Below the pieces are notes generated by a model. The model was not told the DNA's origin. It did not search any database and saw nothing but the letters and a program-made list of their open reading frames with translations. A stretch of DNA of 64,000 nt. Source: Nemertoderma westbladi. Lineage: Eukaryota; Animalia; Xenacoelomorpha. Within the stretch, counting starts at the first letter, position 1, and each line of letters starts with the position of its first letter. The DNA is taken from NCBI GenBank assembly GCA_032718475.1, contig JAUCBJ010007194.1, forward strand, positions 53,027 to 117,026, read 5' to 3'. Shown in pieces: positions 3,090 to 62,131 of the stretch. The position numbers and the translations under genes are program-made.

Positions 3090-4320
3090 TGTAAAAGCTT
3101 TTGCGTAATTAGCCGGTTATTATCCCCGTAAAGTACTCTGTGGTTGGTTTACCAGGCATAAAAAGGCCGTGTCCTTGCTGTACTGGTGTTTTGGAGGACA
3201 TAAAAGCCATTTCTTCTGTATTTGTACTTTAGAGGACATAATCTGCAATTTCATGACGTAAAAAGCTCGATACTCTTGAAAACAGTGTCGCTACCATGAC
3301 GACGGCTAACGGCTGATATTGCCACGTTGCAGCTTTCTGTATCTGCCAATAGGATTTGAGTTGGTTTTGATTTCGACCTATCACAGATCTACTGAACTGA
3401 ATTTCCTATCTTTATGCTCATTCTCTGTGGTGGGTGGAAGCCTTTGTAAATAAGGTTATTCTTATCAGTGTTCAGTGTTATGTTTTTGCCCAGAGCCTAA
3501 GAACCGGCTTTTGGCACCTCCGTGTTTCAGTCTTTAGTCTTACATTAGTAGGCTCAATTATAGAACGTATATCTGTTATCTTAATTATCTTAACTTCTTA
3601 ACCACTCACGAGTTACACAAGTTAACTCATTCACTTAATAATCATTTATACATTAATATTACTGCTTTTACTGTCGGTCATTCATTATATTGGTTGATGA
3701 AATATTATATCGGAATACTGATCAATAGTCAGACACCCCACCTTCTTGATATACTAAAGGTTAGAGAGACCGGTTACAGATAAACGATTGCGACCTGTGT
3801 TGAGTGGTTTGAAGTGAATCTAATGCTATTTCATATGCCCAACATAAATTGTCTGTTGCTCTCTTTATACGTGACCAAATTTAGTGAAGGTCGGCAGATT
3901 AGTGTGCAGTATTGTGCAGCATTGTGTATGAGTGTAACTGATAACAAAACATCTCCTAAAGAATGTGCCATATACGTGAATCTATAGCCTTTTCGTTGTG
4001 ACTAGTTTAAGTCATAACTCTGTTTATATAGATAGAGCGCCACGTCCTAAAGGAACTGTTAATATTTCCCGAAAGTGAATAATATTTGTCAGAGATTATA
4101 TATCACGATCAGTCGAATAATACAGTAGGCTTACACCATCAATCATTAAGCCCCGAACTCAGTCTCCCGGGTATATCCAACGGGTGAATGATTGCGCATA
4201 GACTGGCTTCGGCTAATGTAGTGTATCAAATACTCGTCATAGGCTAAAGACTATCTATCATCCAAAAGACATTCTAATTTTGGCAGGTTAAACTGTCAAA
4301 GGTCTTTAAAAGCGCAAACA
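3090..4320 (+). repeat. 3' LTR of family-1 copy 0 (~1.23 kb, TG...CA)
   Basis: TGTAAAAGC...GCGCAAACA. Homologous to the LTRs at 15729, 26717, 44249 and 59221. Confidence 0.93.
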
Positions 4321-15728: not shown

Positions 15729-16917
15729 TGTTCGCGCTTTCAGACCTTTGGCAGTTTAACCCGCCAAATTAGGATGTCTTCTAGATAATAAATCGCTTTA
15801 GCCTCTAACAAGTATTTGATTCACTACACTAGTTGAAACCAATCTGTGCGCGATCATTCACCCGTTGGATATACCCGGGAGATTGATTTCGACAGCTTAA
15901 TCGTATTGCTATGTAAGCCTAATGTATTATTCGACTGACAGTATTATATAATCTCTGACAATATTATTCACCTTCGGGAAATATTAACAGTTCCTTTAGG
16001 ACGTGGCGCTCTATCTATATAAACAGAGTTATGACTTAAACTACTCACAACGGTATGGCTTAGTTACAATTCACATATTTGGCGCATTCTTTAGGAAATG
16101 CTTCGTTATCAGTCTCACTCATACACAATGCTGCACAATACTGCACACTAATCTGCCGATCTTCACTGATTTTAGTCACATATAAAAGGAACACAGACCG
16201 ACTCATGTAGGGTCTATCAAATAACATTAAATTCACTTCAAACCACTTTAACATAAGTCACAATTGTTATATGTAACCTTTCTCTCTTACCTTCGGTATA
16301 TCAAGAATATTGGGTTTCGGGGTTATTTCTCGTTATTCCAAATATAATAATTCATCAACAAATATAATGAATAACCGACAGCAAAGCAGTAATGTTAAGT
16401 TAAGTTGCACAGTATGGGCCAGTTAACCAGTGTTAACCAGTGCAGATAACATTGAGTTACCCAGATAACGGATATATGTCCTTATAATTAAGCCTACTAG
16501 TGTAAGGCTAAAGCAGAAAAGCACAAAATACTCCAAAGCCGTTCTTCCTTGGCTCAGGACTGAATGATAACACTGCCCATAATGCATTACGTGATTTCTC
16601 GGAAATTTCTGTACAAGAGCCATAAAAATGCTCTGATTGGCTGACTGAACTAAGAGAGAACAAAGAAACAAAGAAATGTTCTACGTGGCAATATCAGCTG
16701 TTAGCCGTCGTCATGGTAGCGACACTGTTTTCAAGAGTATCCAGCTATTGCGTCACGAAATACGGATTATGTCCTTTAAAGTACACATACAGAAGCAATG
16801 GCTTTTATGTCCTCTAAAACACCAGTACAGTAAAGACACGGCCTTTTTATGCCTGGTAAACCAACTACAGAGTACTTTAAGGGAAAATAACCGGCTAATT
16901 ACGCAAAAGCTTTTACA
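15729..16917 (-). repeat. 3' LTR of A
   Basis: Near-identical to 26717-27906. Preceded on the minus strand by the PPT TGGGAGCGG. Confidence 0.96.
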
Positions 16918-16995
16918 CCGCTCCCAGAAAATGGGATTTAAGTCTATAAAATATAACAAATCACAGTTTCTAAAATATAAAGATACTCTAAACAG

Positions 16996-19986: not shown

Positions 19987-22900
19987 TTACGTTATGGAGT
20001 CCCTAGATGTTTGAAGGATTAGGGAGGTGGTCGTGGGAAGAGAATCTTGCCTTCCACAGTTTCCGGAGAGTCCTCCATTCCCTTCCGGTAAACACAAACG
20101 ACCGACTGGGTGATTGAGTCGCTGCATCCCGAATACGATTCCAGGTTTCCTCTTCGTCCTGGAATAGTGACGATAGAAACATCGCTCTAAGTACACGACG
20201 GCCTTACAAAGCCGATTCCAGGAGCTATAGTGGTCCGTCGCTCCCTGCAGGAGAGGTGAGAGTCCCTGCGAGACGTCTGATGTTCCAGAGCTCCAATCGC
20301 TCCCTCTGATCTTCATGAAGGATCCACTCGCGGTGGGGAGGTCCAGATCCACGGCGTCGTCCCTGGCAATATGTAATACCGACAGATCTATCCCGGGTTC
20401 AAATAACTCCGCTCCACCCGTCCGGGTTTTAGGTTTAACTTTCTCCGCTCCCTTGGCTGGTCTAATCTCAGTCGGAGTAAGATGGGGAGGCCATTCATCC
20501 TCCTTACTCAGGAAGTCGGGTTCACCTAACCGGTCTGTAGTATCTGTCAGTTCTTGAGGAGTTGCTCCTCTGGAAGCGATGTCAGTTGGATTAAACTTCT
20601 TGGGGCAATATCTCCATTGATCTACATTGGAGCTAATATCGTCATTATCTGAGGAGTATGGTGTTCCCTCAGTTGGGTCGTCTCCCTCACTAGTATCATC
20701 TTCCCATTCACTCACCTGGCGGACGCGATCTTGAAGCAGTCTTTCTCTGAGCGTTCTTCGGGAAGGTCCAGTAAGGTACCAACCTACTCTAGTTCTTACC
20801 GCATAGGTCTGAAGTGGTTGCGGTTGAGCAGGTCGTTTCTCCAATGTCTCCAGCGCCTCATGCGCGTTTTGACTGATTAATATTTGTACTCCAGGATAAT
20901 CGGTGTCGAATCTAGGGATGTTAAGTTGTTGGGCATGATCATCTTCGTCCCAATTATAAGGTTCCACTTGGGTGGTAGCGAAGTTCTTTATTGCCACCAT
21001 TTTGACTGACCTTATACTGTATTCTCCTAGTTTATCCTGTGGAGTGGACAACTCACCTATATAATAGTCGGCAGCTACAGTAGAATTCCAAACCTGCATG
21101 ATCCCTGACATGTTTAGCTTGGTTCGGAACTTGGGTTGTCCAGCAAAGATGACTTCGGCTAGTTCTTTATCGATGAATGTTCCTGTGCTACCGGAGTCCA
21201 GGAGGGCGTTCACTATATAGCTCTTCTGAGGTCCGTGGACCCGTAACTGGACTACAGGAAATTCTCGGATTCCTATATTGGAAGTTGGCGCTTTCCAAGA
21301 TGGTTGTTGATCAGAAGTAGTTAAGGTAAGGTCGCTGTCTGTGTCTTTCTCATGCACGAGTGCTCGATACACTGCGGTGGTGTTTATTAGGTAACAGGAT
21401 TCGTTTTGGTCGGAGAACTCGTCCGTATAGAATCCTTCCATCTCAGATTGATCAGTGTCGTTCACATCACTGAATTGGACATGTAGTTCGGACTCACTTA
21501 CCAGACTCGGGCTGTTTCGTTCGAATTCCGTGTGCAACAAAATATGATGTTTTGCGCCGCACTTTGCACACCTTGCGTCGGAGTAACAGGTTCGCCGTTG
21601 GTGTCCTCGTCTGAGGCAATTATAACACAACCGCTTATCCCACATGACTTCACGTCTATCCTTTAGTGATTTCCTCAGGAATTTATCACACGCATTTAAA
21701 CGGTGGGGCCCGTCGCACAGCACACATTTCGGCTTGATGTTACTTACTTTAACCTGTGCTATGTGGTGCACACTTGTTCTTTCCTCGGGCTTTCTCACCT
21801 GAATTCTTTTAGGAGACGTAGGAGGGGTTTTTTGTACCGGTTCCCTTCTGTCATTGGGTCGAGACTTGGATTTACTTACCTGGTCTTTAGGCGTTTTATT
21901 GACATAATAAGATCTTTCAGTGTCTTTCCCGCTGTCCTCTCCTTGAGAGGTTTGGCTTTCGCCGTCGTCTGTATAACACATTGGTGTTACCCTTCTCTTA
22001 GAAACGGGTTTCTCACTTACCTTGTTTTCCAATGTCTTCTCTCTGGACTGCCTTAGGAGCTGTAATTTCACTTCTCTATCTAAGAATGACATGAGATCAG
22101 TCATGGTAGGGTCTCGTCGTTGTTGTTCCATCATATATAACACTTTCTTATCCCAGCGTGTACCTACTCCACCCTTCGGTAAAGTAGAAGCCACTGCTCT
22201 AATAACCATAGCACTCTGATACTCATGAGACTTACCTAGCCAATCTAATTGTCTGCAGATCTCCTGAATTTCATCGGAAAACTCTATAATCCCGTTGCTA
22301 ATAAACTTTCGGGGCGCTACCAACTTTGCATACAAATACCCAGCTATTTTATTCCTATTACCATACCTGATGTTTAGTGTATCCCAAACTTGTCTTAATC
22401 CGTCTGGATGTCCAATAAACTTTAACGCCATTAACTTGGGAGATCCTTCCAAGCACTCAATGAGGAATCTAAGTTTCTCTCCATTAGATAGTACAGAGTT
22501 CTGTATGTTATCTTTGTAATATTCATTAAAAGGTAACCATTTCATCTCATCTCCATTGAACTTGACGATCTCTCCCACCTTTACCGCTTGCCGGGCTTCG
22601 GTTCTAGCCATTTGACGCGTAAAACTTTCTTGGGCCATCGTGTTATTTAATATCGAGTTATCAGTATATAAATTTCTCGGATTATGATCCGTTCTATATG
22701 GAATATCCTTATCAACAGGTCTATAATTACCCTTAATAGGGTTCACTATAGGAGTTTCTACTTCGCTAGCAGTATAGATGCGTGTAGGCTCCACACCTTG
22801 CGCATGCGATACTTCAGACCTAACAGGTTGACACATTGTTACAGAGGGTGGTGGTATACTCTTTTGTGTATTTACTAATTTATCGCGTTCTAGCGCGATA

Positions 22901-24441
22901 CTTTGCTGCACTTCTTGCAACTCTAGCCTACTTTCCCTTACTGTGCCTTTGAATTGTTGAACAGTCTCCTGCATCTGCCCGAGCAGGAGATCCATCCCCC
23001 GCCGTCTCTCGTCCACCCATTCGACTGCCGAAACGGGAGTCGCCAACGTTGTAGCGGGCGGACGAGGGACAACGGGCGACAAATCATGAATATTTCGCTC
23101 GGGGTCCAGGACCTGAACTGTCTCCTGGGCAGTTCTACGGGGCACAGGTAGCTTAGTGCTATGCAGAGGGAATTTAGAGGTAGTTTCAGGGAGCACAGGT
23201 GTGTCTATCACCGAAGGGGTGATTTCAAGAACAGGCCTAATTATTTCAGGCTCATCTACTATAGTAGGGAGTCTTTCTATTTTAATTGTTTGGTCTGTGG
23301 GTTCTGTACTACCTAAGTTGGTGTTATTTAGTTGCCTTCTAACAGCTGGAGGCAAATCAGGCAATTTCTGACGGTGGAATGTTCTTTTACGTCTGCTTAG
23401 ACGAGATATATTTCCTTTGCCTTCAGTATCGGTGGTATCGCCTTCCTCAGATGATGTATATCCCTGTCTTTTGGGAGTAGATCGATTCATCATCTGCATA
23501 TTACTAGCTGCTAACTGTTTATTTATGCAGTCTTGATTCTCCTGAATGTTTTCCAATTCTAATTGGGTGGTTTCTTCAGCCGCTTTCCGTTCTGCTTCTG
23601 CCACTTTTGCCTCTGCCGCTGCCTCTGCCGCTGCCTCTGCTGCTTTTGCCTCTGCCGCTGCCTCTGCCGCTGCCTCTGCCGCTTTTGCCTTGGCCGCTGC
23701 CTCTGCCGCTTTTGCCTTGACCGCTGCCGCCTTTCTTTCTGCTTCTGCAGCTACCACTGCTGCTTTCTTTCTGTCTTCTATGCGTTTTTTCTTTACTTGT
23801 TCTTCTTGGACTCGTGTGATGCGGAGTTGTTCATCAAATTTAGCCTGGTTCGCAGCCCTCATATCCACATCGATGGCATCCAACACAAGCTTGGTTCCTT
23901 CACTATTAGGGCTAAGTCCCTCTAACCTTCTCCTCAACTCGTCATCACCTAAAAAACGTTGATAGTCTGACAGATAGATGTCAATGGCATCCCTCTTATG
24001 CGGTTTCTCTGCTGTCACTTCGCTTTCTTCTTGAGAAGAAGTGGCGTCGGTTGATTCTTCATAGGTTGGCCGCTCATCATAAACCTTATCCACCATCTTC
24101 GCTCCGCGTTCGGGCGTCCGCTCAACAGTATCTGAACTACTGGAGCTATCAGGCCGTTGAGAAGTAAGTTCTTGGCTCGCGGGTTGTTGAGGTTCCGCTG
24201 CTTCTTGGTCCCGCTTGACCTGAGCTCGAGTGCCTATGATAGACCTACGATGTTGGACTAGCCTAGGGTCTGAGATTACTACAGTAGGGATGGCCTTTCT
24301 TACAGCAGGAGGTGACTTCGACTTGGATCTAGGATGTTCTATACTTTGATCTTGGTCACAGATCTTTTTAAGGCACTGTCTAACAGTCATTCTAACACTT
24401 TCTATGAGACTATCTGACAGTGTTTGTCGTGAGTCAGACAT
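19987..24441 (-). CDS. Bel/Pao Gag-protease ORF (1484 aa) fused in frame to residual pol fragments
   Basis: Ala/Glu/Lys coiled coil, capsid-like FNGDEMKWLPF..EKLRFLIECLEG, triple knuckles (CVLCDGPH, CYNCLRRGH, CAKCGAKHH) and protease ALLDSGS. Then WRYCP..NPTDIASRG and the pol C-terminus. No YxDD or integrase core. Confidence 0.93.
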   Translation of the reverse strand: MSDSRQTLSDSLIESVRMTVRQCLKKICDQDQSIEHPRSKSKSPPAVRKAIPTVVISDPRLVQHRRSIIGTRAQVKRDQEAAEPQQPASQELTSQRPDSSSSSDTVERTPERGAKMVDKVYDERPTYEESTDATSSQEESEVTAEKPHKRDAIDIYLSDYQRFLGDDELRRRLEGLSPNSEGTKLVLDAIDVDMRAANQAKFDEQLRITRVQEEQVKKKRIEDRKKAAVVAAEAERKAAAVKAKAAEAAAKAKAAEAAAEAAAEAKAAEAAAEAAAEAKVAEAERKAAEETTQLELENIQENQDCINKQLAASNMQMMNRSTPKRQGYTSSEEGDTTDTEGKGNISRLSRRKRTFHRQKLPDLPPAVRRQLNNTNLGSTEPTDQTIKIERLPTIVDEPEIIRPVLEITPSVIDTPVLPETTSKFPLHSTKLPVPRRTAQETVQVLDPERNIHDLSPVVPRPPATTLATPVSAVEWVDERRRGMDLLLGQMQETVQQFKGTVRESRLELQEVQQSIALERDKLVNTQKSIPPPSVTMCQPVRSEVSHAQGVEPTRIYTASEVETPIVNPIKGNYRPVDKDIPYRTDHNPRNLYTDNSILNNTMAQESFTRQMARTEARQAVKVGEIVKFNGDEMKWLPFNEYYKDNIQNSVLSNGEKLRFLIECLEGSPKLMALKFIGHPDGLRQVWDTLNIRYGNRNKIAGYLYAKLVAPRKFISNGIIEFSDEIQEICRQLDWLGKSHEYQSAMVIRAVASTLPKGGVGTRWDKKVLYMMEQQRRDPTMTDLMSFLDREVKLQLLRQSREKTLENKVSEKPVSKRRVTPMCYTDDGESQTSQGEDSGKDTERSYYVNKTPKDQVSKSKSRPNDRREPVQKTPPTSPKRIQVRKPEERTSVHHIAQVKVSNIKPKCVLCDGPHRLNACDKFLRKSLKDRREVMWDKRLCYNCLRRGHQRRTCYSDARCAKCGAKHHILLHTEFERNSPSLVSESELHVQFSDVNDTDQSEMEGFYTDEFSDQNESCYLINTTAVYRALVHEKDTDSDLTLTTSDQQPSWKAPTSNIGIREFPVVQLRVHGPQKSYIVNALLDSGSTGTFIDKELAEVIFAGQPKFRTKLNMSGIMQVWNSTVAADYYIGELSTPQDKLGEYSIRSVKMVAIKNFATTQVEPYNWDEDDHAQQLNIPRFDTDYPGVQILISQNAHEALETLEKRPAQPQPLQTYAVRTRVGWYLTGPSRRTLRERLLQDRVRQVSEWEDDTSEGDDPTEGTPYSSDNDDISSNVDQWRYCPKKFNPTDIASRGATPQELTDTTDRLGEPDFLSKEDEWPPHLTPTEIRPAKGAEKVKPKTRTGGAELFEPGIDLSVLHIARDDAVDLDLPTASGSFMKIRGSDWSSGTSDVSQGLSPLLQGATDHYSSWNRLCKAVVYLERCFYRHYSRTKRKPGIVFGMQRLNHPVGRLCLPEGNGGLSGNCGRQDSLPTTTSLILQTSRDSIT

Positions 24442-25772
24442 GTTTGATTGTACAGTTGAATGCCTACTGCTATATTACAGTTAAAGCAAGTCTAGTAATT
24501 CAGTATCACTGTTAGCCTAGTAATTAATTACCGATACTGCTACTCAATGTAGCGTGATATATATAATATATTAGAATACCGGTATGTTTATAGTATATAT
24601 AAGTATTATTACAGACTAGGTTTGTTACAGAATACCGGTATAATTTTAGCACAAATATATAAATATATAATAGGCCTATCGTGAATACCGGTATACAGCC
24701 TACTTATAGTATATATAAGTATAATTCTGGACTAGAATTAATTGCAGAGTACCGGTATGATTTCAGCCTAAATTTATAGAAATAAAGATAATAGGCCTAT
24801 CGTAAATACCGGTATGTCAATTATTTTAAATAATTGAATTTCTGAATTTTTTAAGGGTTACTTGGTTACTTTACTTACTTTATTACCGTTATTTGAGCGG
24901 TAGTCCAACTGATATTGAGACCTAATGGTTGTATGGTAGGCCTACTATTTATAAATTGTTAGATTTGATTTATAATATATATATACCCGTTTTAATAGGT
25001 TTTGTCAATGTTTGAAATAAATGTTATTATTTCTGGGGAGTAATCACTACACAAAGCGGTGCGCTTTCAGTGAAGTGTTACTTATAGGACACTAAAACAA
25101 ATAATGCTAATTTACCTAAGTTACTTAATACTACAAATTACGTACAATTCGGGTGAGATTACAATCTCTAAATAAACACAAAAATTTACAAAAACACAAA
25201 ATACGAATTTTCAGGGTAATTTTACAAGAAGTCTACAAACCAGCCTAACAAAGGGTTAGTATCTGGTTATTACAACGGACAGGGTACTGCGGTAGGTATT
25301 TGAAAATAATACGTAGTAGTGAATACACTGCGTTGTCCAGATAGGAAAATACCACCGCCTGACGACCTATAGCCGTATCGTATATACTTAGGTATATACG
25401 GTACTACGTTATGTATCATGGAGTGTTCCTACCTAGAAGTTAATAGAGCTAATCGAACGTGCCTATCAACCACTTTACAACACAAATATAATGTCTACCC
25501 TAATTACTTTCGGAAAGCACTGTACACTAAACCCTAAATTAGGTACGAGTACTTGTACAACATATAATCAGTAGTTAAATATACTTGAACAGCTAAAAGA
25601 ACCACGGCATCTGCTGGAGTGACCGGTGCACAAAATCACCAGTCTTTACCTACGCCAAGCAGCCCGTGTAGTACCGGGGTTAATTTAACTATAGCGGTAT
25701 GTATAACAAACACAATTATTGTAGGAACAAACTTGGGGAATGAATGTTGCGAATAATCGCATAAACTCTGAA

Positions 25773-26345
25773 TAATAAATATTACGCTACCCGTACAAAC
25801 CACTCAAACAAAATGCAGACCAAATACTGACAGACTACTATCAAGCCTAAATAAACTATAGGACATGCAGACTCCGAAATGATTAGGTAGTATGCGTTCT
25901 AACCCAGTAGTACGACTTATTCTTTAGATGGGGGTTTACCTTACAGCTTTGGCTGCCCCTACTTCCTAACCGTTCTTTATCGGACAGAGGCTCTACACAC
26001 ACTGCAATCCGTTCAGACCTAATAACAGCCAGACAACTATCCAGCCTACAAATTATCTAAATAAATATTATACGCTACCTGTACAGACTACACAAACAAA
26101 GTACAGACTAAACGATGGCAGACTACTCTCAAGCCTAAATAAACTACAGGACATGCAGACTCCGAAATGATTAGGTAGTATGCGTTCTAACCCAGTAGTA
26201 CGACTTATTCTTTAGTTGGGGGTTTACCTTACAGCATTGGCTGCCCCTACTTCCTAACCGTTCTTTATCGGACAGGTGATCTACACACACTGCAATCCGT
26301 TCAGACTTAACAACAATCAGACAACAGCTCAGCCTACAAATTGTC
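25773..26345. repeat. ~288-bp tandem duplication in the 5' leader of A
   Basis: GGACATGCAGACTCCGAAATGATTAGG occurs at 25861 and 26149 with continuing identity. Confidence 0.9.
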
Positions 26346-26704
26346 TGTACAATCTGATCAGGCTTACACGCCTTCTGTTCAATACTGGCCTACAAACAAA
26401 TAAAACTTGACAGAAATAAGTAAAAATCTCAATAAAAAACCAGGGCGGGCCCTCCCTGATTAATTATTAAGGCCTACCGGTATATAACTATCAAATTCGA
26501 ATAATACTAATGTACTTATACGGGAAGTACCGGTTAGGACAGTTAGGCCTACGGACCTACAGAAGTACCGGTTCTGGCAGTTGGACCTACGGACCTACGG
26601 CAGTACCGGTTCTGGCAGTTGGGCCTACTGACCTACAGATGTACCGTTCAGGTTTACCGGTTGACCGGTACTTTCAACTTTATTGCTTACTGCAATAAAG
26701 AAGC

Positions 26705-26716
26705 TATATCCGTTAT
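26705..26716 (-). promoter_or_regulatory. Non-tRNA PBS-position sequence of A, complementary to its own LTR
   Basis: Sense ATAACGGATATA abuts the 5' LTR and is the reverse complement of the sense LTR 12-mer at 27453-27464. Confidence 0.7.
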
Positions 26717-27906
26717 TGTTCGCGCTTTCAGACCTTTGGCAGTTTAACCCTCCAAATTAGGATGTCTTCTAGATAATAAATCGCTTTAGCCTCTAACAAG
26801 TATTTGATTCACTACACTAGTTGAAACCAATCTGTGCGCGATCATTCACCCGTTGGATATACCCGGGAGATTGATTTCGACAGCTTAATCGTATTGCTAT
26901 GTAATCCTAATGTATTATTCGACTGACAGTATTATATAATCTCTGACAATATTATTCACCTTCGGGAAATATTAACAGTTCCTTTAGGACATGGCGCTCT
27001 ATCTATATAAACAGAGTTATGACTTAAACTACTCACAACGGTATGGCTTAGTTACAATTCACATATATGGCGCATTCTTTAGGAAATGCTTCGTTATCAG
27101 TCTCACTCATACACAATGCTGCACAATACAGCACACTAATCTGCCGATCTTCACTGATTTTAGTCACATATAAAAGGAACACAGACCGACTCATGTAGGG
27201 TCTATCAAATAACATTAAATTCACTTCAAACCACTTTAACATAAGTTACAATTGTTATATGTAACCTTTCTCTCTTACCTTCGGTATATCAAGAATATTG
27301 GGTTTCGGGGTTATTTCTCGTTATTCCAAATATAATAATTCATCAACAAATATAATGAATAACCGACAGCAAAGCAGTAATGTTAAGTTAAGTTGCACAG
27401 TATGGCCCAGTTAACCAGTGTTAACCAGTGCAGATAACATTGAGTTACCCAGATAACGGATATATGTCCTTATAATTAAGCCTACTAGTGTAAGGCTAAA
27501 GCAGAAAAGCACAAAATACTCCAAAGCCGTTCTTCCTTGGCTCAGGACTGAATGATAACACTGCCCATAATGCATTACGTGATTTCTCGGAAATTTCTGT
27601 ACAAGAGCCATAAAAATGCTCTGATTGGCTGACTGAACTAAGAGAGAACAAAGAAACAAAGAAATGTTCTACGTGGCAATATCAGCTGTTAGCCGTCGTC
27701 ATGGTAGCGACACTGTTTTCAAGAGTATCCAGCTATTGCGTCACGAAATTACGGATTATGTCCTTTAAAGTACACATACAGAAGAAATGGCTTTTATGTC
27801 CTCTAAAACACCAGTACAGTAAGGACACGGCCTTTTTATGCCTGGTAAACCAACTACAGAGTACTTTAAGGGAAAATAACCGGCTAATTACGCAAAAGCT
27901 TTTACA
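26717..27906 (-). repeat. 5' LTR of A
   Basis: TGTAAAAGC...GCGCGAACA on the minus strand, with the TSD adjacent. Confidence 0.96.
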
Positions 27907-27949
27907 ACTTACTACATTCAACCATCTTCTTGGGAAATTTTCGTTGTGG

Positions 27950-28380
27950 AAGGGGTGTTACGCGGCAGTCTGGGATCTAAAGCTGGACTCATTACAACGC
28001 CTACGCCCCAAACTGCACACATAACGGACAATGAATAGAACGCTGGAAGTGAAGTCACGTGGAATGCACCAGGGACCCACCAGAATAACACTCCCAGAAA
28101 CATAAAGCTCAGCCAACAAAGTCATGTGGAATGCATCAGGGACCCACCAGAATAACGTGGCTGAGGAACATAAAGTCTCTATCGACGAAGTCATGTGGAA
28201 TGGTGTTACGCAACATTCTGGGATCTACAGCTGGACTCGTTACACCGCCTACGCCCCAAACTGCACGTAACGATCCCACCAGAATAACGCGATAGAGGGC
28301 GTGTTGCATGGCAGTCCGGGATCTACAGCTGGACTCGTTACACCGCCTACGCCCCGAACTGCACACGCAACGGACAACAC
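27950..28380. repeat. Interleaved direct repeats in the D region between pol and the extra ORF
   Basis: GGGATCTACAGCTGGACTCGTTACACCGCCTACGCCCC occurs 3 times (~27972, 28220, 28318). AAGTCATGTGGAATG..GACCCACCAGAATAAC occurs 2-3 times. Confidence 0.8.
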
Positions 28381-40200: not shown

Positions 40201-40343
40201 AAAAAACAATAACGATGTAAATAGTAAATAATACAGAACATAGCAATACGCGATATGTATTTTGTATTATAATATCGCTCATAAATATGCAACCACCACC
40301 ATTGCAATGCTGTTTATAATTAATTGAGTTTATAATAAATTAA

Positions 40344-43374: not shown

Positions 43375-43384
43375 TCGGGCGCCA
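43375..43384 (-). promoter_or_regulatory. Canonical PBS of E (tRNA-Lys-type)
   Basis: TGGCGCCCGA directly follows the 5' LTR and matches the start of the tRNA-Lys3 PBS TGGCGCCCGAACAGGGAC. Confidence 0.8.
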
Positions 43385-44248: not shown

Positions 44249-45419
44249 TGTTCGCGCTTTTAGACCTTTAGCAGTTTAACCTGCCAAATTTAGGTGTCTT
44301 CTAGGTTATAAATCGACTTTAGCCTATAACAAGTATTTGATACACATAAAGTTACATTAGCCGAAGCCTGCCTATGCGTGATCATTCACCCACGGTTAAG
44401 GGAGACTGGATTCGGATGCTCTGACCTTATTGCGGTGTAGGCCTACTGTACTATTCGATTGATCGTTAATATATAATCTCTGACAAATATTATTCACTTT
44501 CGGGAAATATTAACAGTTCCTTTAGGACGTGGCGCTCTAAGTATGTAAACAGAGTTATGACTTACACTAAACACAACGGGATGGCTATTGATTTACGTAT
44601 AAAGCGCATTCTTTAGGAAATGCTTTGTTATCTGTCACACTCATACACACTACCTCACACTGCTGCACACTGATCTGCCGACCTTCACTAAATTTGATCA
44701 TATATAAGGAGAACAGCAACTGACACATGTAGGGTCTATGAAATAGCATTCAATTCACTCCAAAACCACTATAATGTAAGTCGCAATTGCTATATGTAAC
44801 CGGTCTCTCTAACCTTCAGTATATCGAGAAGATTGGGCTTTTATGATTATTCATCGATATTCTCCAAATATAACAACATATCAATCAACTTCTAACAATT
44901 AATAACCGACAGTAAATAGCAGTAAAATAATGCGGTGAAAGGTAAGGTGAGTCTGGTATGCCAGGATAACAGTTATACGTTTCTATGATCAAAGCCGTTC
45001 TAATGTTTGGCTAAAGTCTGAAACACAGAATAATTCCAAAGCCGATGTTCTGGGCTCAGGAAAAAAGGTAAACAAAGACCATAATGCATTGCGCGATTTC
45101 CCGGAGGCTTCTGTGCAAATAAAATGAAAATCGCTCTGATTGGTCGAGTGAGTGAGCCTGAACAAAGAAAGCCAAAAGCTCCACGTCGACATATCAGCTG
45201 GTAGATGTCGTCATCTGAACTACACTGAATTAAGAGTATTTTGGCGTATTGCGGCATAAAATGGCTTGTTATGTCCGCTAAAGTACACATACAGAAAAAT
45301 GGCTTTTTATGTCCACTAAAACACCTACACAGTAAGAAAACGGCTTTTTATGTCCGCTAAAACACCTACAGAGTACTTTGCGGGAAAAATGACTAGCTAG
45401 ATCCGCAAAAGCCTTTACA
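44249..45419 (-). repeat. 3' LTR of B
   Basis: TGTTCGCGC...CCTTTACA on the plus strand, followed by the PPT complement CCGCTCCCA. Confidence 0.92.
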
Positions 45420-49789: not shown

Positions 49790-52700
49790 TTACGTTGGGG
49801 AGTCCCTAGATGTTTGTTGGATTAGGGAGGTGGTCGTGGGAAGAGTATCTTGCCTTCCATAGTTTCCGGAGAGTTCTCTGTCTCTTTCCAGTAAACATAA
49901 ACGACCAACTGGGTGATTGAGCTGCTGCGTCTCGAAGACAATTCCCGGTTTCTTAAAGTTACGTCGCATGACGACGAGTTCTACTGATCGCACTAAACCA
50001 TCATCCGAGATATGAGTCTCGATGATACGACCTGTCTACCACCGCTTAAGTGGAAGATCTGAATCCACAATAAGGACCATGTCTCCGGTGCTGACGTTTT
50101 CTTGCTGCGCAAACCACTTAGTTCGAAGTTGTAGCGTAGGCAGATAATGTTTTTCGAAATGGTCAGCGAAACGACGGGATAACAACTGCATAAGTTGCCA
50201 AGTTTGCCGGCAGTATTCGTCTCCGTCCGTGATTTCCGATCGTGGGAGCATGGCTACAGGTTTCTTCAGTAGGAAGTGTGCGGGTGTTAGCGCTTCCAGG
50301 GAATCGGGACTCGATGAGACTGGCATAAGCGGTCTCTCGTTGAGATAGGCGGCGATTTCCTCCATTAACGTCCGCAAAAGTTCGTCGGTGAGATACGCGC
50401 GGCATGGCACTATAAAGTGAAATGCGGTCTTCACGCTTCTGATTAATCTCTCCCAACTTCCTCCCCACCAAGGGGCGTCGGCGCCGTTAAAGGTCCAGCT
50501 AGACGCTGTTACCCTTAGCTGATCGTCCACCTGTCTTTGGTTCCAATCTTTGACGTAAGCCTTGATTTCATTGTTGGCACCAATGAAGTTCGTTCCCTTA
50601 TCAGATCTCATCGTATTACTAGTTCCAAAGCGAGCGATCTGTTGGCGTAAGCTCAGTATAAAGCTGTTGGTAGATAGATCGTTCACCATATCGAGATGGA
50701 TAGCTCTACAAGTCATACAGACAAAGATGACACACCATCTCTTGACTATAGTCCTAGCACGATATACTTCAATAGGGCCAAATAAATCCACACCGGTATT
50801 AGTAAAGGGTGGTTCATAGAAGCTTACACATTCCCTAGGTAATTCTGCCTCTCGCTGTGTTAAAGGCCTACTGAATACTTTCCTACAGGGTATGCAGTTC
50901 CTAAGAACTTGGTTCAGAGCTCTACGGGGTTTATGAAAATAATAGCGAGTTCGAATTTCGCTAAGAACTCATTCTCTACCAGCATGGTAAAGCTTACTGT
51001 GAACATCTACAATCATCTTGATTTGTATTTCAAGATTTCTAATGAGTATGGGAAACTTAGTGTCAAAGGATAATGGGGCATTAGTTAGTCTTGTTCCAAC
51101 ACGTATCAACCCATCTATCATTGTGCTAGAGAAACGATCCCTTAAGCGCATCTGTGGATTTCTCAACAACAGGAAATACTTATCGGAATCCTCATAGCAT
51201 TGCAGGAGTCTCAGTATCTTCTTATTGGTTTCTTCATGCTCCTGGTAGCTGATTTTCTCCTTCAGAAATCTTTCTGATATCTTGTATTTGGGAAGATCTT
51301 TAACAACATGGACGTGCGCAGATGTCGGTGGAGCGGTATCACTAGCGATCTTTGTCCTGGAGTAGTGATGATGAAAACATCGCTTTAAATAAGCAACGGC
51401 CTTACAAAGTCGATTCCAGGAGCTATAGTGATGTATCGCTCTCTGCAGGAGTGGTGAGAGTCCCTGCGAGACGTCTGGCGTTCCAGATTTCCAATCTCTC
51501 TCTCTGATTTCCACGACAGACTTATTAGTGGCGGGGAATTGTGGATCCAAAGCATCGTCTCCGGAAATGTGTAGTACAGACAGATCTATCACGGGTTTAA
51601 ATAACTTCGATTTACTCGCCTGGGTTTTAGGTTTGACTTTCTCCGCTCCCTTGGCTTGTCTAATCTCAGCCGTGGTAAGATGATGAGGCCATTCATCCTC
51701 TTCCTTGCTTAGGAAGTCGGGTCCACCTAACCAGTCTGGAGTATCTATCAGTTCCTGTGGAGTGGCTCCTCTGGAGGCGATGTCGGCTGGATTAATCGTC
51801 CCGGGGCAATGTCTCCATTGATCTATCTACGTACGACTAAGTATAATGGCTACTCTGTTGGTAACGAAGACGCTGAACTGACAGACTTCATTGGTGATAT
51901 ACTCCAACACGAGTAAAGCATCGGTCCAATAGACAGTTTTCTCCAGTGGATAGTCTATCTGTTCTGTTACATTCCTGCCGATGGCTGTAGCGTATAGAGC
52001 CGCTTTTAACTCCGCTCGAGGAACTTTCAACTTATTGTTTATCAAGGCCTTAGAGGTAACTAAGGCGACCTTAATTCCATCCGGAGTTTCAACCCTCAGG
52101 TAGGCTACTATACCTATTCCCATGTCGCTGGCATCTCCAAACACATGGAGTTGATAGGAATACGTGGGGAGAACGTGACCAAAATATGAACGGGAAATTA
52201 TAAAGTTCTCGATGGATGGCAGAGAATCTTCCCATTTCATCCACTTCTTTAAAAGTTCTCCCTTAAGTGGATCGTCCCATGAGTGGTTTTCAAGCCACAT
52301 TTGTTGTACTAAACTCCGAGCAATCAATATAACTGGGCTAATAAATCCCAATGGATCGAAATAAGTGCTCAGGATACTTAGACAAATCCGTTTAGTCCGA
52401 ATTGGATTATCTCGCTGTTTTAGCTGGAAAAACAGGATATCTCTCTCTGTGTCCCATTTCAAACCAAGAGTCTTGGTTTCTGGAAGATCGTCCTTGATAA
52501 GGTGTAGATCTTTAACTCCTCGGTCTTCTACCGGGATCGATTCCAGAAATTCACGGAATTTGCTGGTGAATTTAGTTAATCGAAATCCACCTCTTTTCAA
52601 GCACTCTACCGTTCCTTTGGCGACATCAATGGCTTCTTCCACCGATGGGAGGGACTTTAAATTGTCGTCCATGTATATATCTCGTTTGATGTTGTCGATA

Positions 52701-55700
52701 ACTTCTTTGGAGAAGGCGTCCCGGTTGTCATCAGCAGTGGTACGCACTACTGAGCAGGTGTTTGAAGGGCTCGAGATGATCCCAAAAGCCTGGATGGTCA
52801 TCCAGTACTCGACCGGTTTCTGGTTGAGATCTCCTTCAGGCCACCACAGAAATCGTAGGCTGTCTCAATCCCTATCCAGCGCCTTAACTTGTAAGAACAT
52901 GCCTTCTATATCGGAAGCGAAAGCGATATTGTCATAATCTTAAGAGTATTCCCAACAAGGATTGGAGTAAGTTGGGTCCCGGCAACAACTCGGAGTTAAG
53001 GGATTGGTTCATGTAGAGGGCGGAGCCGTCAAATACTACCAGGACTTCATTGGGTTTACCGGGTTTGGGAACGTAATGATGTGTTAGATAGTACGTTATC
53101 TCAGTTATGGGAGTTTCTTCCGGTACTCGCTCCGCATATCCCTTGTCAATGAATTTCTTCAGCTGGGTCTTGTACATCTCCTTAGCTGAAGCATTTGCCG
53201 TAAGGCGTCGATGTAGTTGCGCAATTCTCTTCTCCGCCAAGGGTCGGTTGTTTATAAAATTGGGTTCTCGCCGTCGGAAAGGCAGACCAATCTCATATCT
53301 ACCTTGATCTTTAAGAAAACGTGTAGTTGTTTCCTGTATCTGCTTGGCTCTTTCTTCTTCTACCGATAGGGCCTTATCGTAGGAATTGGGCTCTACAGCC
53401 TCTTGAGTAAAGAATCGTACGGCGTGTTCATCACGAGTCTTCGCGTTATAGCGATCTATCACTTCATTCAGTTCGTCGTTGTAATCAACTTGTCCAGCTG
53501 GATGAATGAGGTGACATAAGTTCACTTGGTTTTGCCAAGTTTCATTTTCCGTAAGGAGGTCGATGGTATTCTCCTCGTCGAAGAGTTGGTGGATATCGTC
53601 ATTATCTGAGGAGTATGGTGTTCCCTCAGGTGGGTCGTCTCCCTCACTGGTCTCCTCTTCCCATTCACTCACCTGGTAGACTCGTTCTTTGGGTAGCCTT
53701 TCCATGAGAGTTCTACGGGAAGGTCCAGTAAAGTACCAACCTACTCTAGTTCTTCCCGCATAGGTTTGTAGTGGTTGCGGTTGAGCAGGCCGTTTCTCCA
53801 ATGTCTCAAGCGCCTCATGCGCATTTTGGCCGATGAGTATTTGCACTCCAGGGTAATCTGTGTTGAATCTAGGTATCTTATGCTGCTGGGTGAAATCGTC
53901 CTCATCCCAGTTATAAGGTTCCACTTGGCTGGTAGCGAAGTTCTTTATCGCCACCATTTTTACTGACCTTATACTGTGTTCTCCTAGTTCATCCTGGGGG
54001 GTGGACAACGCGCCTACATAGTAATCTGTAGTTACTGTAGATTCCCAAACCTGCATAATTCCTGACATGTTCAACTTAGTTCGGAACTTGGGTTGTCCAG
54101 AAAAGAAGTCTTCGGCTAGTTCTTTGTCGATGAATGTTCCTGTGCTGCCGGAGTCAAGGAGGGCGTTCACTATATAGCTCTTTGCTGACCCGTGGACTCT
54201 CAACTGCACTACGGGAAATTCTCGGATTCCTACGTTGGAAGTTGGTGCTTTCCAAGATGGTTGTCGGTCAGGAGTAGTTAGGGGGAGCTCACTATCTGTT
54301 TCCTTCTCATACGTAAGTGCTCGATACACTGCGGTATTTATTAGGTAACAGGATTCGTTTTCGTCGGAGAATTCATCCGTATAGAATCCTTCCATTTCAG
54401 AACTTTCAGAACTTTGGTCAGTGTCGTTCACATCACTGAATTGGACATGTAGTTCAGACTCACTTACCTGACTCGGGCTGTTTCTTTTGAATTCAGTGTG
54501 CAACAAAATGTGATGTTTCGCGCCGCACTTAGCACACCTTGCGTCGGAGTAACAGGTTCGCCATTGGTGTCCTTGTCTGAGGCAATTATAACACAACCGC
54601 TTATCCCACATGACTTCACGTCTATCTTTTAGAGATTTCTTTAAAAATTCATCACACACACTTAAACGGTGGGGCCCGTCGCACAGCACACATTTTGGTT
54701 TGATGTTACTTACTTTACCTTGGGTAACGTTGTGCACTCTCGTTCTTTCCTCGGGCTTTCTTCTGTGAACTCTCTTAGGAGACGTAGGAGGAGTTTTTGT
54801 TACCTGTTCTCTCCTGTCATTGGTTCGAGACTTAAATTTACTTACGTCTTTAGGCGCTTTGTTGACATCGTAAGATCTTTCAGTGTCTTTCCCGCTGTCC
54901 TCCTCTTGAGAAGCCTGGCTTTCGCCGTCGTCTGTATAACACACTGGCGTTACCTTTCTCCTAGAAACGGGTTTCTCACTTACCTTATTTTCCGGTGTCT
55001 TCTCTCTGGACTGCTTTAGGAGCTGTAATTTTACCTCTCCATCTAAGAATGACATGAGATCAGCCATGGTAGGGTCTCTTCGTCTTTGTTCCATCATATA
55101 TAACACTTTCTTGTCCCAGCGTATACCTACTCCACCCTTTGGTAAAGTAGAGGCCATGGCTCCAATAACCATAGAACTCTGATATTCATGAGACTTACCT
55201 AGCCAATCTAATTGTCTACAGATCTCCTGAATCTCATCGGAAAACTCTATAATCCCGCTGCAAATGAACTTTCGGGGCGCTACCAATTTTGCATACAAAT
55301 ACCTAGCTATGTTATTCCTATTACCATACCTGATGTTTAGTGTATTCCAAACTTGTCTTAATCCATCTGGATGTCCAATAAACTTTAACGGCATTAACTT
55401 GGGAGATCCTTCCAAGCACTCGATGAGGAATCTAAGTTTCTCTCCATTAGATAGCACAGAGTTCTGTATGTTATCTTTATAATATTCATTAAAAGGTAAC
55501 CATTTCATCTCATCTCCATTGAACTTGACGATCTCTCCCACTTTTACCGCTTGACGGGCTTCGGTTCTAGCCATTTGACGCGTAAAACTTTCTTGGGCCA
55601 TCGTATTATTTAATATCGAGTTATCGGTATATAAATTTCTCGGATTATGATCAGGTCTATATGGAATATCATTTTCAACAGGTTTATAATTACCCTTAAT

Positions 55701-57904
55701 AGGGTTTACTATAGGAGTTTCTACTTCACTAGCAGTATAGATGCGTGTAGGCTCCACACCTTGCGCATGAAATACTTCCGACCTAACAGGTTGACACATT
55801 GTTACAAGGGGTGGTGGTATACCCTTTTGTGTATTTACTAATTTATCGCGTTCTAACGCGATACTCTGCTGCACTTCTTGCAACTCTAACCTACTTTCCC
55901 TTACTGTTCCCTTGAACTGTTGAACAGTCTCCTGCATCTGCACGAGCAGGAGATCCATCCCCCGCCGTCCCTCATCCACCCACTCGACCGCCAAAGCGGG
56001 AACCGCCAACATAGTAGCGGGTAGACGAGGGACAACGGGCGACAAATCGTTAATATTTCTCTCGGAGTCCAGGACAGGAACTGTCTCAGGGGCGGTTCTG
56101 CTGGGCACAGGTAGTTTAGTGCTGTGCAAAGGGAATTTAGAGGTAGGTTCTGGGAGTACAGGTGTCTCTATCACCGAAGGGGTGGCTTCAAGAACAGGCC
56201 TAATTATTTCAGGCTCATCTACTATAGTAGGGATTCTTTCTACTCTAATAATTTGGTCTGTGTGTTCTTTACTACCTAAGTCTGTGCTAGCTAGTTGCCT
56301 TCTCACAGCTGGGCGCAAATCAGGCAATTTCTGACGGTGGGGCATTCTTCTACGCCTGCTGGTAGAAGATCTATTTCCTCCGCCTTCAGGATCTGTTGTA
56401 TCGCCTTCATCCGATGATGTAAAGCCCTGTCGCTTGGGGGTGGATCGACTTATCAGCTGCATCTGACTAGCTGTTATCTGTTTATTTAAGTAGTCTTGCT
56501 TCTCTTGAAGATTTTCCAACTCTAGTTGGGTTATCTCTTCAGATGCCTTCCGTTCTGCTTCTACCACTGCCTCCGCCGCAGTTCTTTCGGCTTCTGCCGC
56601 TGCCGCTTTTCTTTCTGCCTCTGCCACTGTCGCTTTTCTTTCTGCCTCTGCCGCTGCCGCTTTTCTTTCTGCCTCTGCCACTGCAGCCTTTCTTTTCACT
56701 TCTGCTGCTGCTGCTGTTGCTGCCTTTCAGTTTTCTATTTGTTTTTTCTTTAATTGTTCTTCCTGTTCCCTAACGATGCGGATTCTTTCATCAAATTTAG
56801 CTCGATCCGCTTCTAACCTTTCCGCATCTATTGCGTCCAACACAAACTTGGCTCCTTCACTATTAGGGCGAAGTCCAGCCAGCCGTCTCCTCAACTCTTC
56901 GTCTCCTACAAATCGTTGATAGTCTGACAGATAGATGTCAATAGTGTCCTTCTTCTGCGGTTTCTCTGCTGTCGCTTCGCTTTCCACTTGAGAAAAGGTA
57001 GCGTCTGTTGATTCTCCATGGGTTGAGCGCTCAGCCAGCTGAGATTTCCACTGGGCCGTTCCTTGAACCTTGAGACCCACCCGCTGGAACCAAGTCTTTA
57101 CGGCAACTTGCAACGAAGTGTGTCTTGTCTTCTTTTCGAAGCTTCCTCAACGGCCGATAGGATTAGTCTGATTCTTAGAATTCTTTCTCTAACTTGATAA
57201 AGCAGCTCTCCCTACTCTTGAGGTCCTTGGGGTTGTTGAAACAGTTGTTCCTCTAATCGCTCCAAAGAGCTGAAGAATCCCTGTACGTATCCTGCTGCCG
57301 ACCTCTTCCACACAGCAGGATCACTAGTGTCTTTTGTCACTCCCATCTTGTATAAGTCCTCCCAGGCAGCTTCCGATAAGTTAAACGGGAGTCCGGGTCC
57401 GGGGAAGTTCCATTGCGTCTCGACAATAGACTTCAGTTCCTCCCTTGTGTATCCTGCATAACTGTCCTTGGTCGATCGCTTACTTCTCCCCCAATCGATT
57501 TGGTTTTCCTCCACCGCAATCATTACCCTAGTGAGTACGGCTGCAGGAAGAATGAGAAGGGGATCCGAATAAACTGCATCTGCCATCTTTGCTCCGCGCT
57601 CGGGTGTCAGCTCTACAGTATCCGAACTACTGGAGCTATTGGGCCGCTGAGAAATAAGTTCTCGGCTCGAGTGTTGCTGCTGTTTAACAGCTGCTTCTTG
57701 ATCCCGCTTGACTTGAGCCCGAGTGCCTATGATAGACCTACGGTGTTGGACTAGCCTAGGGTCTGATACTACTACTGGAGGGATGACCTTTCTTGCAGTA
57801 GGAGGGGAGTTGAACTTCGGTCTCAAACGTTCCGCACTCCTATCTGGATCACAGATGGTTGTATCTAGGAGACTGTCTGACAGGTTTTGCTTTGTGTCAG
57901 ACAT
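49790..57904 (-). pseudogene. Bel/Pao gag-pol of B with several stops and frameshifts
   Basis: Gag and PR as in A. RT (IYMDD), RH (LHVFGDAS..VPRAEL) and IN (DLFGP..SDKGTNF..WERLIRSVK). Confidence 0.95.
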
Positions 57905-59220: not shown

Positions 59221-62131
59221 TGTTCGCGCTTTCAGACCTTTGGCAGTTTAACCCACCAAATTAAGATGTCTTCTAGATATTAAATCTGTTTTTAGTCTAT
59301 GACAAGTATTTGATTCACTACACTAGTCGAAACCAATCCGTGCGCGACCATTCACCCGCTGGAGATTCCCGGGAGATTGGGTTCGACGGTTTAATTTTAT
59401 TGCTATGTAAGCCTAATGTATTATTCGACTGACAGTATTATATAATCTCTGACAATATTATTCACCTTCGGTAATATTAACAGTTCCTTTAGGACGTGGC
59501 GCTTTATCTATATAAACAGAGTTATGACTTAAACTACTCACAACGATATGGCTTAATTATAATTCACATATATGGCGCATTCTTTAGGAATTGCTTCTTT
59601 AACAGACTCACTCATACACAATGCTGCACAATACTGCACACTAATCTGCCAATCTTCACTGATTTTAGTCACATATAAAAGGAACACAGACTGACTCATG
59701 TAGGGTCTATCAAATAACATTAGATTCACTTCAAACCACTTTAACATAAGTCACAATCGTTTATCTGTAACCCTTCTCTCTTACCTTCGGTATATCAAGA
59801 ATATTGGGTTTCGGGGTTGTTTATCGTTATTCCAAATATAATAATTCATCAACCATATTATGAAGAACTGACGGTAAATAGCAGTATAAAACAACAACTG
59901 AACACTGATTGTTACGAGTTTGCAATGTTTCAGCAGTCAGGATGTATGATCCGTCAGCAGTAGTCTTTAGGTATGCCGATATGTCAGTTAAAGGATATAT
60001 GCCCTTTATAATTAAACCTACTAGTGTAAGACTAAAAACAGTAAGGCACAAAATACTTCCAAGCCGTTCTTTCTTAGGCTCAGGACTGAATGTAAACACT
60101 GCACATAGGCATTGCGTCATTTCTCGGAAATTTTCTGTACAAGGAGCCACAAAAACGCTCTAATTGGCTGACTGAACTGAGAGACGCCGTAGAACAAAGG
60201 AAATCAACACGTATGAATGTCAGCTGTTAACCGTAGTCATAGTAACTACTGTTCAAGAGTAGCTATCACCCCTTTGCGTCACGAATTGCCATAGCATCAT
60301 AAAATATGCCTTTCACAGTACACATACGGAGGAAATAGGTCTTAGATCCTCTAAAAACACCGATACAGCAATAATACGGTCTCTTACACTTATTAAATCA
60401 ACTACAGAGTATTTTAATGTAAAAGATAATAAAAATAACGGGGCAATTCAGCAAAGGCTTTTACACCGCTCCCAGAAAATGGGATTTTCAGTCTATAAAA
60501 TATAAAAATCACAGTTTCTAAAACATAAAGATACTCTAAACAGTTAGTCTTTCTTACGCAGACGGCGTTTACGCAGTTTTTTGAGGCTAGCAAGAGTCTT
60601 TTTCTCTTTGGGGGGAGCCACTTTACTAGGAGGGCCATAACTCCTGGGTGAAGGGTGCAATATGATTGCATCAGAAGGTGTAGGATTGTGGTCGAGGTAT
60701 CTGCCGTTTCGATATGCTTCTCCTCGAGCTGATTTTCCTCCGCTCGTAGCTGGATACGTTCATCCAAAAACTCTCGCAGAGAATAGGATCGTCCAAGTTC
60801 GATAACTTCTTAGAGATTCTGGATTTCCCAATCGAATTGAGATAAGGCCAATTCGTTTATCGATTGGACTCACTGTTATAACTTACGTTTATCTGAACAA
60901 ACGCAGGTTTCCTTTTTGATCTTTATAAAATAGCGTTTAACTCGTTTCGTACAACGCTCTCCTTCACCTTGATGAGGGGTTGTATCGCGTTAAACGTGGA
61001 CGACCATACGGTTGGATAGTGATATTAGGTGTCCGCGTCACAATCCGGCTAGGTAAGATGGGCGGCTAGCTAGAAATCACTGTCGGAGTGTTACCGATTA
61101 ATTGTTAGGGTAGCACTAGATCTTTGAACAGTGAATACAGTCCGCGAGGATCCGCGACACCACCAAGATCGCAGGTCTGAGGTCCAACTAAGGAATGAGG
61201 AGGTTTGACCGAGTATTCCGGGACTCTGATCGTAGGTTTACTCCAGGATCGTTCGAGCCGAGTGAGCATAGGTGATACGTCAACAAGTTTCGGTTTACGT
61301 GGATGTTTATGTCTTTCCGTTTATTAGTTGGGTCTAGGGCATTTATCGTAATAATACCAAAGACGCACGTCTGGTAGGGTAAACGCGGGTGATATTTATT
61401 TGTTGTTACAATGCTTCTATCAAGAATTCCAAATATACGTTGGAGTTACCGCGTCCATTTGTTTCTTAAGTGTCTTTTCTTTCGAGTCGATTTCGAATAG
61501 AATTTTCGCATTCGAATTTCCGTTTATGGTTCCGACTCCGCTGGGCAGGATATATAGTCGACATAGTCCGTATTGTGTAAATCGATAGGATGACAAGACC
61601 ATCTTCTATCAACTCCGTCATATCTGCTATATATGAGTTTATCCATATTATAATGAGTTTATATTTAGGCGAGCGGGCGTCGCTGCCTACCCCAATCAAC
61701 CCCGGACAGTACGAGATCCTCAGCGCCGATGTGTCGTCGCCGCTGTACTTTCGCCAACGACGTAGCCGCACAACGACAACGACAACCGGCACAAGTCACT
61801 CAACTGTCCGTCCCAAAGGCTTAGATGTACTTCAGGTTTCCTTGGAGAGTTAGGTTACTTTTACGATTGCGACTAGCTACTGTAAACACACCTTAGCAGT
61901 AACATTCACCTATAAACTCACAAATACCACACACACAACTTGTCACAAATTACACACATTCGGGCCATTTGTCCGTTAGTCAATGCCTTCCAGAATGTCA
62001 CTGTATTATTATGTATCCTTGGATACTAGTAGTGCGCTATTTATTCCCTATGTTATTCAATGGGACAAGCTTTCTATTGTTCTTTTAATTCAATTCTAAT
62101 TCTAGCGTGGTTGTTGCTATGGTGACATTAT
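59221..62131 (-). mobile_element. Family-1 copy C: 3' LTR (59221-60465) plus 3' region, interrupted by a LINE
   Basis: The LTR is followed on the plus strand by the PPT complement and extra-ORF remnants, so it is a 3' LTR and not B's 5' LTR. Confidence 0.9.

Follow-up and report, generated by a model that had tools for sequence, protein, structure and literature searches.

The Bel/Pao family to which element A of Nemertoderma westbladi belongs very probably primes reverse transcription, in some form, on its own RNA. The primer-binding site (PBS) position of element A is the exact complement of 12 nt of its own LTR, here called P, and in the public contigs of the family the PBS varies in step with P. 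The LTR also holds a second partner of P, a mimic of the PBS called P', and the P:P' helix is likely to be under selection. Among the forms that self-priming could take, we favour, with modest confidence, one in which the RNA would start at P and the helix would lock the P copy of the 3' LTR. The window analysed here is the whole stretch of 64,000 nt taken from contig JAUCBJ010007194.1 of assembly GCA_032718475.1 (positions 53,027-117,026, forward strand).

Table 1. Features of element A, of other family copies in the window and of related families (window coordinates)
Feature	Position	Strand	Remarks
5' LTR of element A	26717..27906	-	1190 bp, TG...CA
3' LTR of element A	15729..16917	-	carries P copy at 16476-16465
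Target site duplication (TSD) TAAGT, element A	left 27907..27911, right 15724-15728	-	5 bp, both sides
Polypurine tract (PPT) of element A	16918..16925	-	G-rich, before 3' LTR
gag-protease frame of element A	19987..24474	-	open, 1495 aa stop to stop
PBS position of element A	26705..26716	-	not TGG-type; 12/12 complement of P
Hairpin past PBS of element A	26678..26700	-	9 bp, 4 nt past PBS; predicted, p 0.96, single sequence
P, candidate self-primer	27453..27464	-	12 nt, LTR position 443-454
Upstream arm lengthening P:P' helix	27465..27482	-	TATA-like word inside
P', PBS mimic in LTR	27045..27098	-	second partner of P
Parts of P'	27098-27092; 27089-27072; 27068-27061; 27057-27045	-	7-bp half; looped-out hairpin; 8-bp half; outer arm
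CCAAT box	27624..27628	-	-164 relative to P in A; -164 to -168 across copies A, B and C
Putative intron enclosing P'	26771..27278	-	donor AAG|GT (A, B, C and 0), acceptor TAG/AAG
LTR copy C	59221..60465	-	P variant 59999-59988, matching P' changes; commoner family type
LTR copy B, 3' LTR of element E	44249..45419	-	P variant 44977-44966, matching P' changes
LTR copy 0, 3' LTR	3090..4320	+	P variant 3568-3579, matching P' changes
gag-pol of element E, same family as A	50036..56726	-	interrupted by stops
Families with PBS complementary to a splice junction			L004, L009, L012, L015, L023, L026/L028, L027, L037, L079
Families with junction match at true LTR boundary			L004, L023, L026/L028, L027

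Element A is a young, recently inserted Bel/Pao copy without a reverse transcriptase. Its two LTRs show 10 differences across 1190 columns, and its open frame contains DUF1759, three Cys-His knuckles and a DSG motif fused to leftover pieces of pol. Relative to family member E, with which it shares 87% DNA identity in gag-protease, it has lost the reverse transcriptase, most of the RNase H and the integrase. Element E itself has a reverse transcriptase (YMDD), a Pao RNase H region in which the acidic motifs appear recognizable, integrase, DUF1759, Peptidase_A17 and DUF5641. The best protein matches are 36-41% identical, the named ones being coral, fish and mollusc records, and the Pao domain PF05380 is present in 88 of 88 protein matches. 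The domain content and order, the three Gag knuckles, the PPT, the TG..CA LTRs and the short TSD agree with the ICTV profile of the Belpaoviridae, as does the LTR size (range 0.2-1.2 kb). Belpaoviridae are described as host-tRNA-primed (PMC8742986), in agreement with the first-pass annotation of this DNA, and the ICTV profile gives them an 18-nt PBS matching a host tRNA 3' end; element A, in contrast, has no such site. Its Bel/Pao membership rests on Pol phylogeny and domains, and the lack of a tRNA PBS is a departure from the family description. A further element of the window, F (29.5-35.7 kb), has no LTR pair.

The end of the 5' LTR is defined exactly, and on the minus strand the abutting window positions 26716-26705 read ATAACGGATATA. 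The reverse complement of this 12-mer lies at 27464-27453 and 16476-16465, with no third site in the window. The complementarity begins at offset 0 and ends at 12 nt, and its polarity is that of a primer, the 3' base of P pairing with the first base past the terminal CA; TGG is absent from the 57 nt that follow the 5' LTR. A match of 12 nt was reached in 1 of 10,000 dinucleotide shuffles of the element A LTR and at 0 of 9,768 interior positions used as a control, and the mononucleotide expectation is 2.3e-4. The first-pass annotation had described a PBS that is not TGG-type and that exactly complements an LTR 12-mer, with a rough chance of ~1e-4; the match is confirmed at the same positions. 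Taken from the sequence, this would point to tRNA-independent priming of element A. ARAGORN found no tRNA in the 64-kb window, Rfam gave nothing above threshold in 24400-28000, and inspection by eye found no splice junction that would extend P in element A.

Three more LTRs of the family are present in the window, and their P variants read as the first-pass annotation had quoted them. Copies B, C and 0 are all 3' LTRs, with a PPT in front and no leader behind, so the window contains a single PBS and cannot itself show covariation between PBS and LTR. A TGG two bases past LTR B was rejected as a PBS, being flanking DNA behind a 3' LTR. At 59221-59222, LTR C abuts sequence homologous to the leader of element A at ~25770, with CA microhomology, and ~950 bp including the PBS are missing at this join. 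LTR B, although it is element E's own 3' LTR, is only ~77% like C, which suggests nested insertion or recombination. Copy 0 is a mosaic, A-like (92%) over its first 250 bp and B-like from ~60 nt before P onward, its P and P' being of the same type.

Covariation was therefore sought in public contigs of four runs (X1, X3, X4 and X5), of which 13,187 aligned to 26600-27600. Among the 40 of 142 variant positions listed (the other 102 may include further PBS variants), two fall within the 12 PBS positions, 26716 and 26712. The first variant holds 66% of depth in X1, 53% in X3, 74% in X5 and 0 in X4; the second holds 69%, 64% and 74% in X1, X3 and X5, and X4 is without coverage there. Together they are the complement of the two transversions that separate the P of copy C from that of element A, and a single contig of X5 carries both. 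The first-pass annotation had predicted exactly these two PBS variants from copy C, and both are present in independent contigs. By a hand calculation, two given differences in 12 sites match in place and letter by chance once in 594. The PBS of the family varies as P does; the covariation is one across molecules, unphased with the LTR, and constitutes one evolutionary contrast (one two-site difference). The family is very high-copy with two common PBS types, the commoner being C-type (53-74% of depth in three runs, contig depth of public runs not being copy number) and element A having the less common one. Contigs aligned to the copy C LTR gave no variant position, among the contigs listed, the deepest of X3 and of X4 show C-type P free of mismatches, and conservation across the family stops 1-3 nt beyond the 3' end of P. 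Directly 3' of P lies a hypervariable segment (27449-27382), with indels and duplications among copies and an ~80-fold drop of depth in X1, which may mark a strand-transfer junction.

These variants bear on two further explanations. Half-tRNA priming exists in copia lineages, and a host tRNA fragment of this type could prime element A with the LTR match incidental. We consider this very unlikely, as the two transversions between the common PBS types are mirrored in both P and P', which a fixed host tRNA does not explain, and the chance of the match is ~1e-4. An assembly artefact, or an isolated case of PBS decay in a defective copy, would fit an element that lacks reverse transcriptase and carries the less common PBS type; it is scarcely credible given that contigs with both PBS types occur at high depth in independent runs and that element A has a TSD and near-identical LTRs.

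Folding of the LTR pairs P, together with the 18 nt upstream of it, with 27098-27045, where P' mimics the PBS; the mimic is split into two halves by a conserved hairpin. All four LTR types share this topology (7 bp, bulged C, 8 bp, outer arm), and in each of them P' ranked first among the ~200 candidate partner windows tested per LTR. Over the five LTRs of the window, 93 of 95 cells are paired and 6 of 19 pairs show two-sided changes, 5 of these among the 15 core pairs and including both C-type sites. The covariation score of 0.316, as against at most 0.10 in slid controls, was reached by 0 of 500 shuffles; copy A was the source of the initial structure, and the independent units are only the four LTR types. 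RNAalifold recovers the helix unaided, with the stem extended to about -35, and 5 of the 9 two-sided pairs in the 470-nt region fall in its core. Copy B is without the TATA-like word of the upstream arm and keeps the helix. Because this covariation is phased, P and P' being in the same LTR copy, and because P', unlike the PBS, cannot be rewritten by primer copying, the helix is likely to be under selection. The pairing of P with the PBS had been noticed in the first-pass annotation, but the second partner within the LTR and the splice-junction form of the relatives described below had been missed.

The fact that P:P' (phased) is better supported than P:PBS (unphased), and that P:PBS is unstable in long folds, would also suit an explanation in which the two pairings form a structural switch acting in translation, packaging or poly(A) control, with another RNA serving as primer, such as a small one released from the P:P' stem by a host nuclease. 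This is quite unlikely in our judgement: the duplex starts at the first base past the LTR, where the 3' end of a primer must sit, related families keep the register (offset 0-3) with unrelated letters, and no other primer site is present. Both this switch and the tRNA fragment are less likely than self-priming, to which the main rival is an upstream start with P released later. Two further features of the LTR were observed. The word CCTAAAG occurs twice (27082-27072 and 26988-26982), invariant in five LTR copies and once as the loop of the P' hairpin, and may be a protein-binding signal. A U5 word at 26845-26837 complements the LTR end at 26725-26717 in 8 of 9 bp; inspection by eye showed one two-sided change there in copy 0, which could be CpG decay. 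The pair of words could form a U5-IR-like stem.

In the form of self-priming that we favour, transcription would start within ~10 nt upstream of P. At the 5' end of the RNA the outer P:P' arm would be missing, so that P would anneal to the PBS and prime minus-strand DNA, while in the 3' LTR the full ~28-bp P:P' helix would form and keep the second P copy off the PBS. A cut at the 3' end of P, for which, by analogy with Tf1, the RNase H of the reverse transcriptase is the probable enzyme, would free the primer, and P would then be extended into U5. Locked by the helix, the 3'-LTR copy could be neither used nor cut, which would leave the acceptor available to first-strand transfer. During plus-strand synthesis the primer would itself be copied, so that P would serve as template for a new PBS, and we propose that the PBS tracks P for this reason. 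Element A, having no reverse transcriptase, would borrow one from a coding family member. The decoy helix would answer a problem of self-primers, in which the same sequence is present in both LTRs and the 3' copy must stay unused.

The predicted switch was folded with RNA 3' ends at 26690-26560 and with the RNA start varied. For starts 0-11 nt upstream of P the P:PBS probability was 0.99-1.0, for starts 18-26 nt upstream it was mixed (0.09-0.99) and for a start 36 nt upstream 0.97-1.0; for starts 56-136 nt upstream, P:P' replaced it (0.97-0.98). Moving the 3' end to 26450 or 26300 lowered P:PBS to 0.01-0.02, which speaks against a start at P, as does the RNAalifold stem reaching about -35. Since the competing folds differ little in energy and predictions over long distances are unreliable, these calculations show the feasibility of the switch and no more. 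The promoter words of the LTR are ambiguous as to the start site. The spacing of the CCAAT box and of an Inr-like word ~90 nt upstream of P, the latter found in A and C only, favours a start upstream of P and fits it better than a start at P. The interval 25-30 nt before P holds no TATA box. A TATA-like word lies 10 nt upstream of P in element A; as a promoter, with a start downstream of P, it was ranked low, being lost in copy B with the helix kept. An AATAAA poly(A) signal is present in copy C, ~150 nt before the LTR end and downstream of P'.

An upstream start is the basis of the main rival, itself a self-primer, in which the RNA would begin ~90 nt upstream, P:P' would be the off state, and P would be freed by a Gag chaperone or by removal of the putative intron 27278-26771; the freed P would pair with a PBS, possibly on a co-packaged unspliced RNA. 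Such a mechanism would resemble that of relatives whose primer is built by splicing. Besides the CCAAT and Inr-like words, it draws on the location of P' within a GT..AG stretch, the donor GT of which all four LTR types retain, on the return of P:PBS to 0.65 when this stretch was blocked in the fold (3' end 26600), and on the splice-junction pairing found in 9 of 43 related families. Against this, B and copy 0 have a weak donor, GTTAG, and the blocked fold gave 0.03 with the 3' end at 26300. The 27278-26771 joint is not among the 7 joints listed for the 13,187 aligned contigs, so no DNA copy of spliced RNA was observed. If spliced RNA were primed in cis, progeny LTRs would moreover lose the intron, yet all 5 copies in the window keep it. 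We therefore regard this alternative as unlikely, if less so than the structural switch, and retain the start at P as the preferred form; the covariation that supports the latter counts from only 4 distinct LTR types.

The comparison with related elements covered 80 loci, of which 57, representing 43 families, had upstream sequence to scan. A PBS complementary to an LTR splice junction was found in 9 of the 43 families as against 6 of 860 cross-family controls. Such a match consists of 11-15 nt after a CA that pair with the joint left by a GT(A/G)AG...YAG intron of 75-344 nt; many of the 34 families without it lack the needed LTR part, and eight more loci, which reach 11 nt with relaxed donors, are left out of the count. 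At nine loci with an apparent LTR end that was read directly, the junction match lay at the true boundary in 5 loci of 4 families; of the remaining four, L033 has a contiguous 11-nt PBS/LTR match, L065 carries a site of TGG type, and neither L016 nor L060, whose LTR ends are unclear, shows a match. As in element A, matching relatives of the clade lack TGG, and their PBS pairs with the element's own LTR. The scan for contiguous matches of at least 12 nt showed no enrichment (2 of 43 families as against 5 of 860 null pairs); both of these families' matches, in L030 (low complexity) and L055 (local hairpin), were rejected. A P'-like partner was present in 3 of 12 junction loci at p up to 0.02 and in 7 of 12 at p up to 0.1, 3 of the 12 being relaxed-donor loci, which is suggestive only. 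In L009 and L026, TATA words precede the donor by 111-144 nt, and as the primer of relatives of this type spans the splice junction it would not be the capped end there, which again argues against a start at P.

In a tree of 53 rows, built from reverse transcriptase to integrase, the family of element A falls in a 36-row clade (SH-aLRT 98) that holds all 11 junction-type rows and L033, both TGG rows being outside. It sits on a long branch outside an inner 32-row clade, and another tree agrees in outline; its pairing with element F was flagged as doubtful by the tool. The tree neighbours are coral, fish and other marine elements, and insect Pao/BEL elements stand apart. The junction families thus share with element A both the clade and a PBS that pairs with LTR-derived RNA, and the last 5-7 bases of their primer form a separate half, like the 7-bp half of P:P'; unlike theirs, in which the complement exists only across the intron, the match in element A is contiguous, as in L033. 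It may be, although we would put the chance somewhat below even, that a wide marine Bel/Pao clade has given up tRNA priming in favour of a gated RNA self-primer, spliced in most families and contiguous here, with a conserved PBS mimic in the LTR as its off state. The transcript end, splicing or a chaperone would then release the primer, and an RNA switch would control the initiation of reverse transcription. In L033 (566-911 and 7075-7401) the 11-nt PBS complement is kept in both LTRs, which are only 74% alike, and its position nested among splice-junction families makes intron loss likely. L065 and L070, outside the clade with self-complementary PBSs, have a TGG-type PBS after a 5-nt spacer. 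A search of viral contigs gave 0 matches to the LTR-end pattern and 0 confirmed relatives.

In Tf1, according to PMC7175516 and PMC4600332, the first 11 nt of the RNA anneal to the PBS, and RNase H cleavage falls between nt 11 and 12. Like Tf1/Tf2 of S. pombe, Tj1, Tosmo1-3 and the Tf1/sushi group, element A has no tRNA site and has 11-12 nt by the 5' LTR that complement its own LTR. It differs in superfamily, with Pao-type Pol where Tf1/sushi elements are Ty3/gypsy chromoviruses, in the location of P, which lies 736 nt before the PBS within an LTR of 1190 bp, and in the conserved PBS-mimic partner, which the accessible text of PMC7175516, PMC4600332 and 10.1101/2022.12.06.519325 does not mention for Tf1. 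The last of these describes a Tf1 'pretzel' of three duplexes, two of which flank the PBS. Flanking duplexes of this kind were not found in the fold of one sequence of element A (26900-26640, PBS held open, no pseudoknots), which gave U5 stems and a separate leader hairpin but no stem enclosing the PBS; this may weigh against a Tf1-like model.

PMC6317226 lists self-priming for Tf1/sushi, Tcn1 and TAR, and gives as its diagnostic an LTR complement of at least 10 bp that starts 0-5 bp past the 5' LTR; in element A it is 12 bp at offset 0. The first-pass annotation had named only Tf1/sushi, whereas according to this source the plant lineages Tcn1 (gypsy) and TAR (copia) are further predicted self-primers. 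Tcn1 and TAR/Houba/Osr-1 (copia) are plant and fungal elements, for which the same text describes neither a decoy helix nor a splice junction. In the accessible text of three Bel/Pao surveys (PMC3118150, PMC6238403 and PMC554778) PBS or primer-binding terms were not found, and that of PMC2864245, PMC3601003, PMC5443660, PMC6934838 and PMC8220671 contains nothing on Bel/Pao priming. The literature searched, mostly outside subscription papers, Repbase/GyDB and supplements and in part accessible only as excerpts, yielded no report of Bel/Pao self-priming; it also yielded no paper on the splice-junction-PBS families and nothing relevant on Cer7. Tf1 is the only element for which self-priming has been shown, and for some gypsy and copia lineages it is predicted; within the literature searched, a Bel/Pao case with a decoy helix appears to be new. 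If Bel/Pao does include a self-primed lineage, self-priming would have arisen independently once more. Such a lineage would explain why PBS finders fail on these Bel/Pao elements, and it would presumably place the family beyond the reach of silencing by 3'-tRNA fragments.

Several other elements were noted in the window. At 39827-43654 (minus strand) lies a small gag-only Bel/Pao-type element with 270-bp LTRs (99.6%) and a canonical TGG-type PBS at offset 0, in contrast to element A in the same window; it has a 1.1-kb internal duplication within an open gag frame and sits in a non-LTR reverse transcriptase fragment. A non-LTR retrotransposon at 7452-11362 (minus strand) has QGDP and YADD motifs and a restriction-like endonuclease, without a Pfam match, and from its appearance by eye we take it to be R2/HERO-like; ~12 in-frame Pro-rich repeats of 42 nt (9024-9524) lie between its two reverse transcriptase motifs. 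The stretches 28467-29215 and 4318-4844 hold inverted, foldback-like arrays of a 20-nt unit and an inverted repeat with 212-bp arms that adjoins LTR copy 0.
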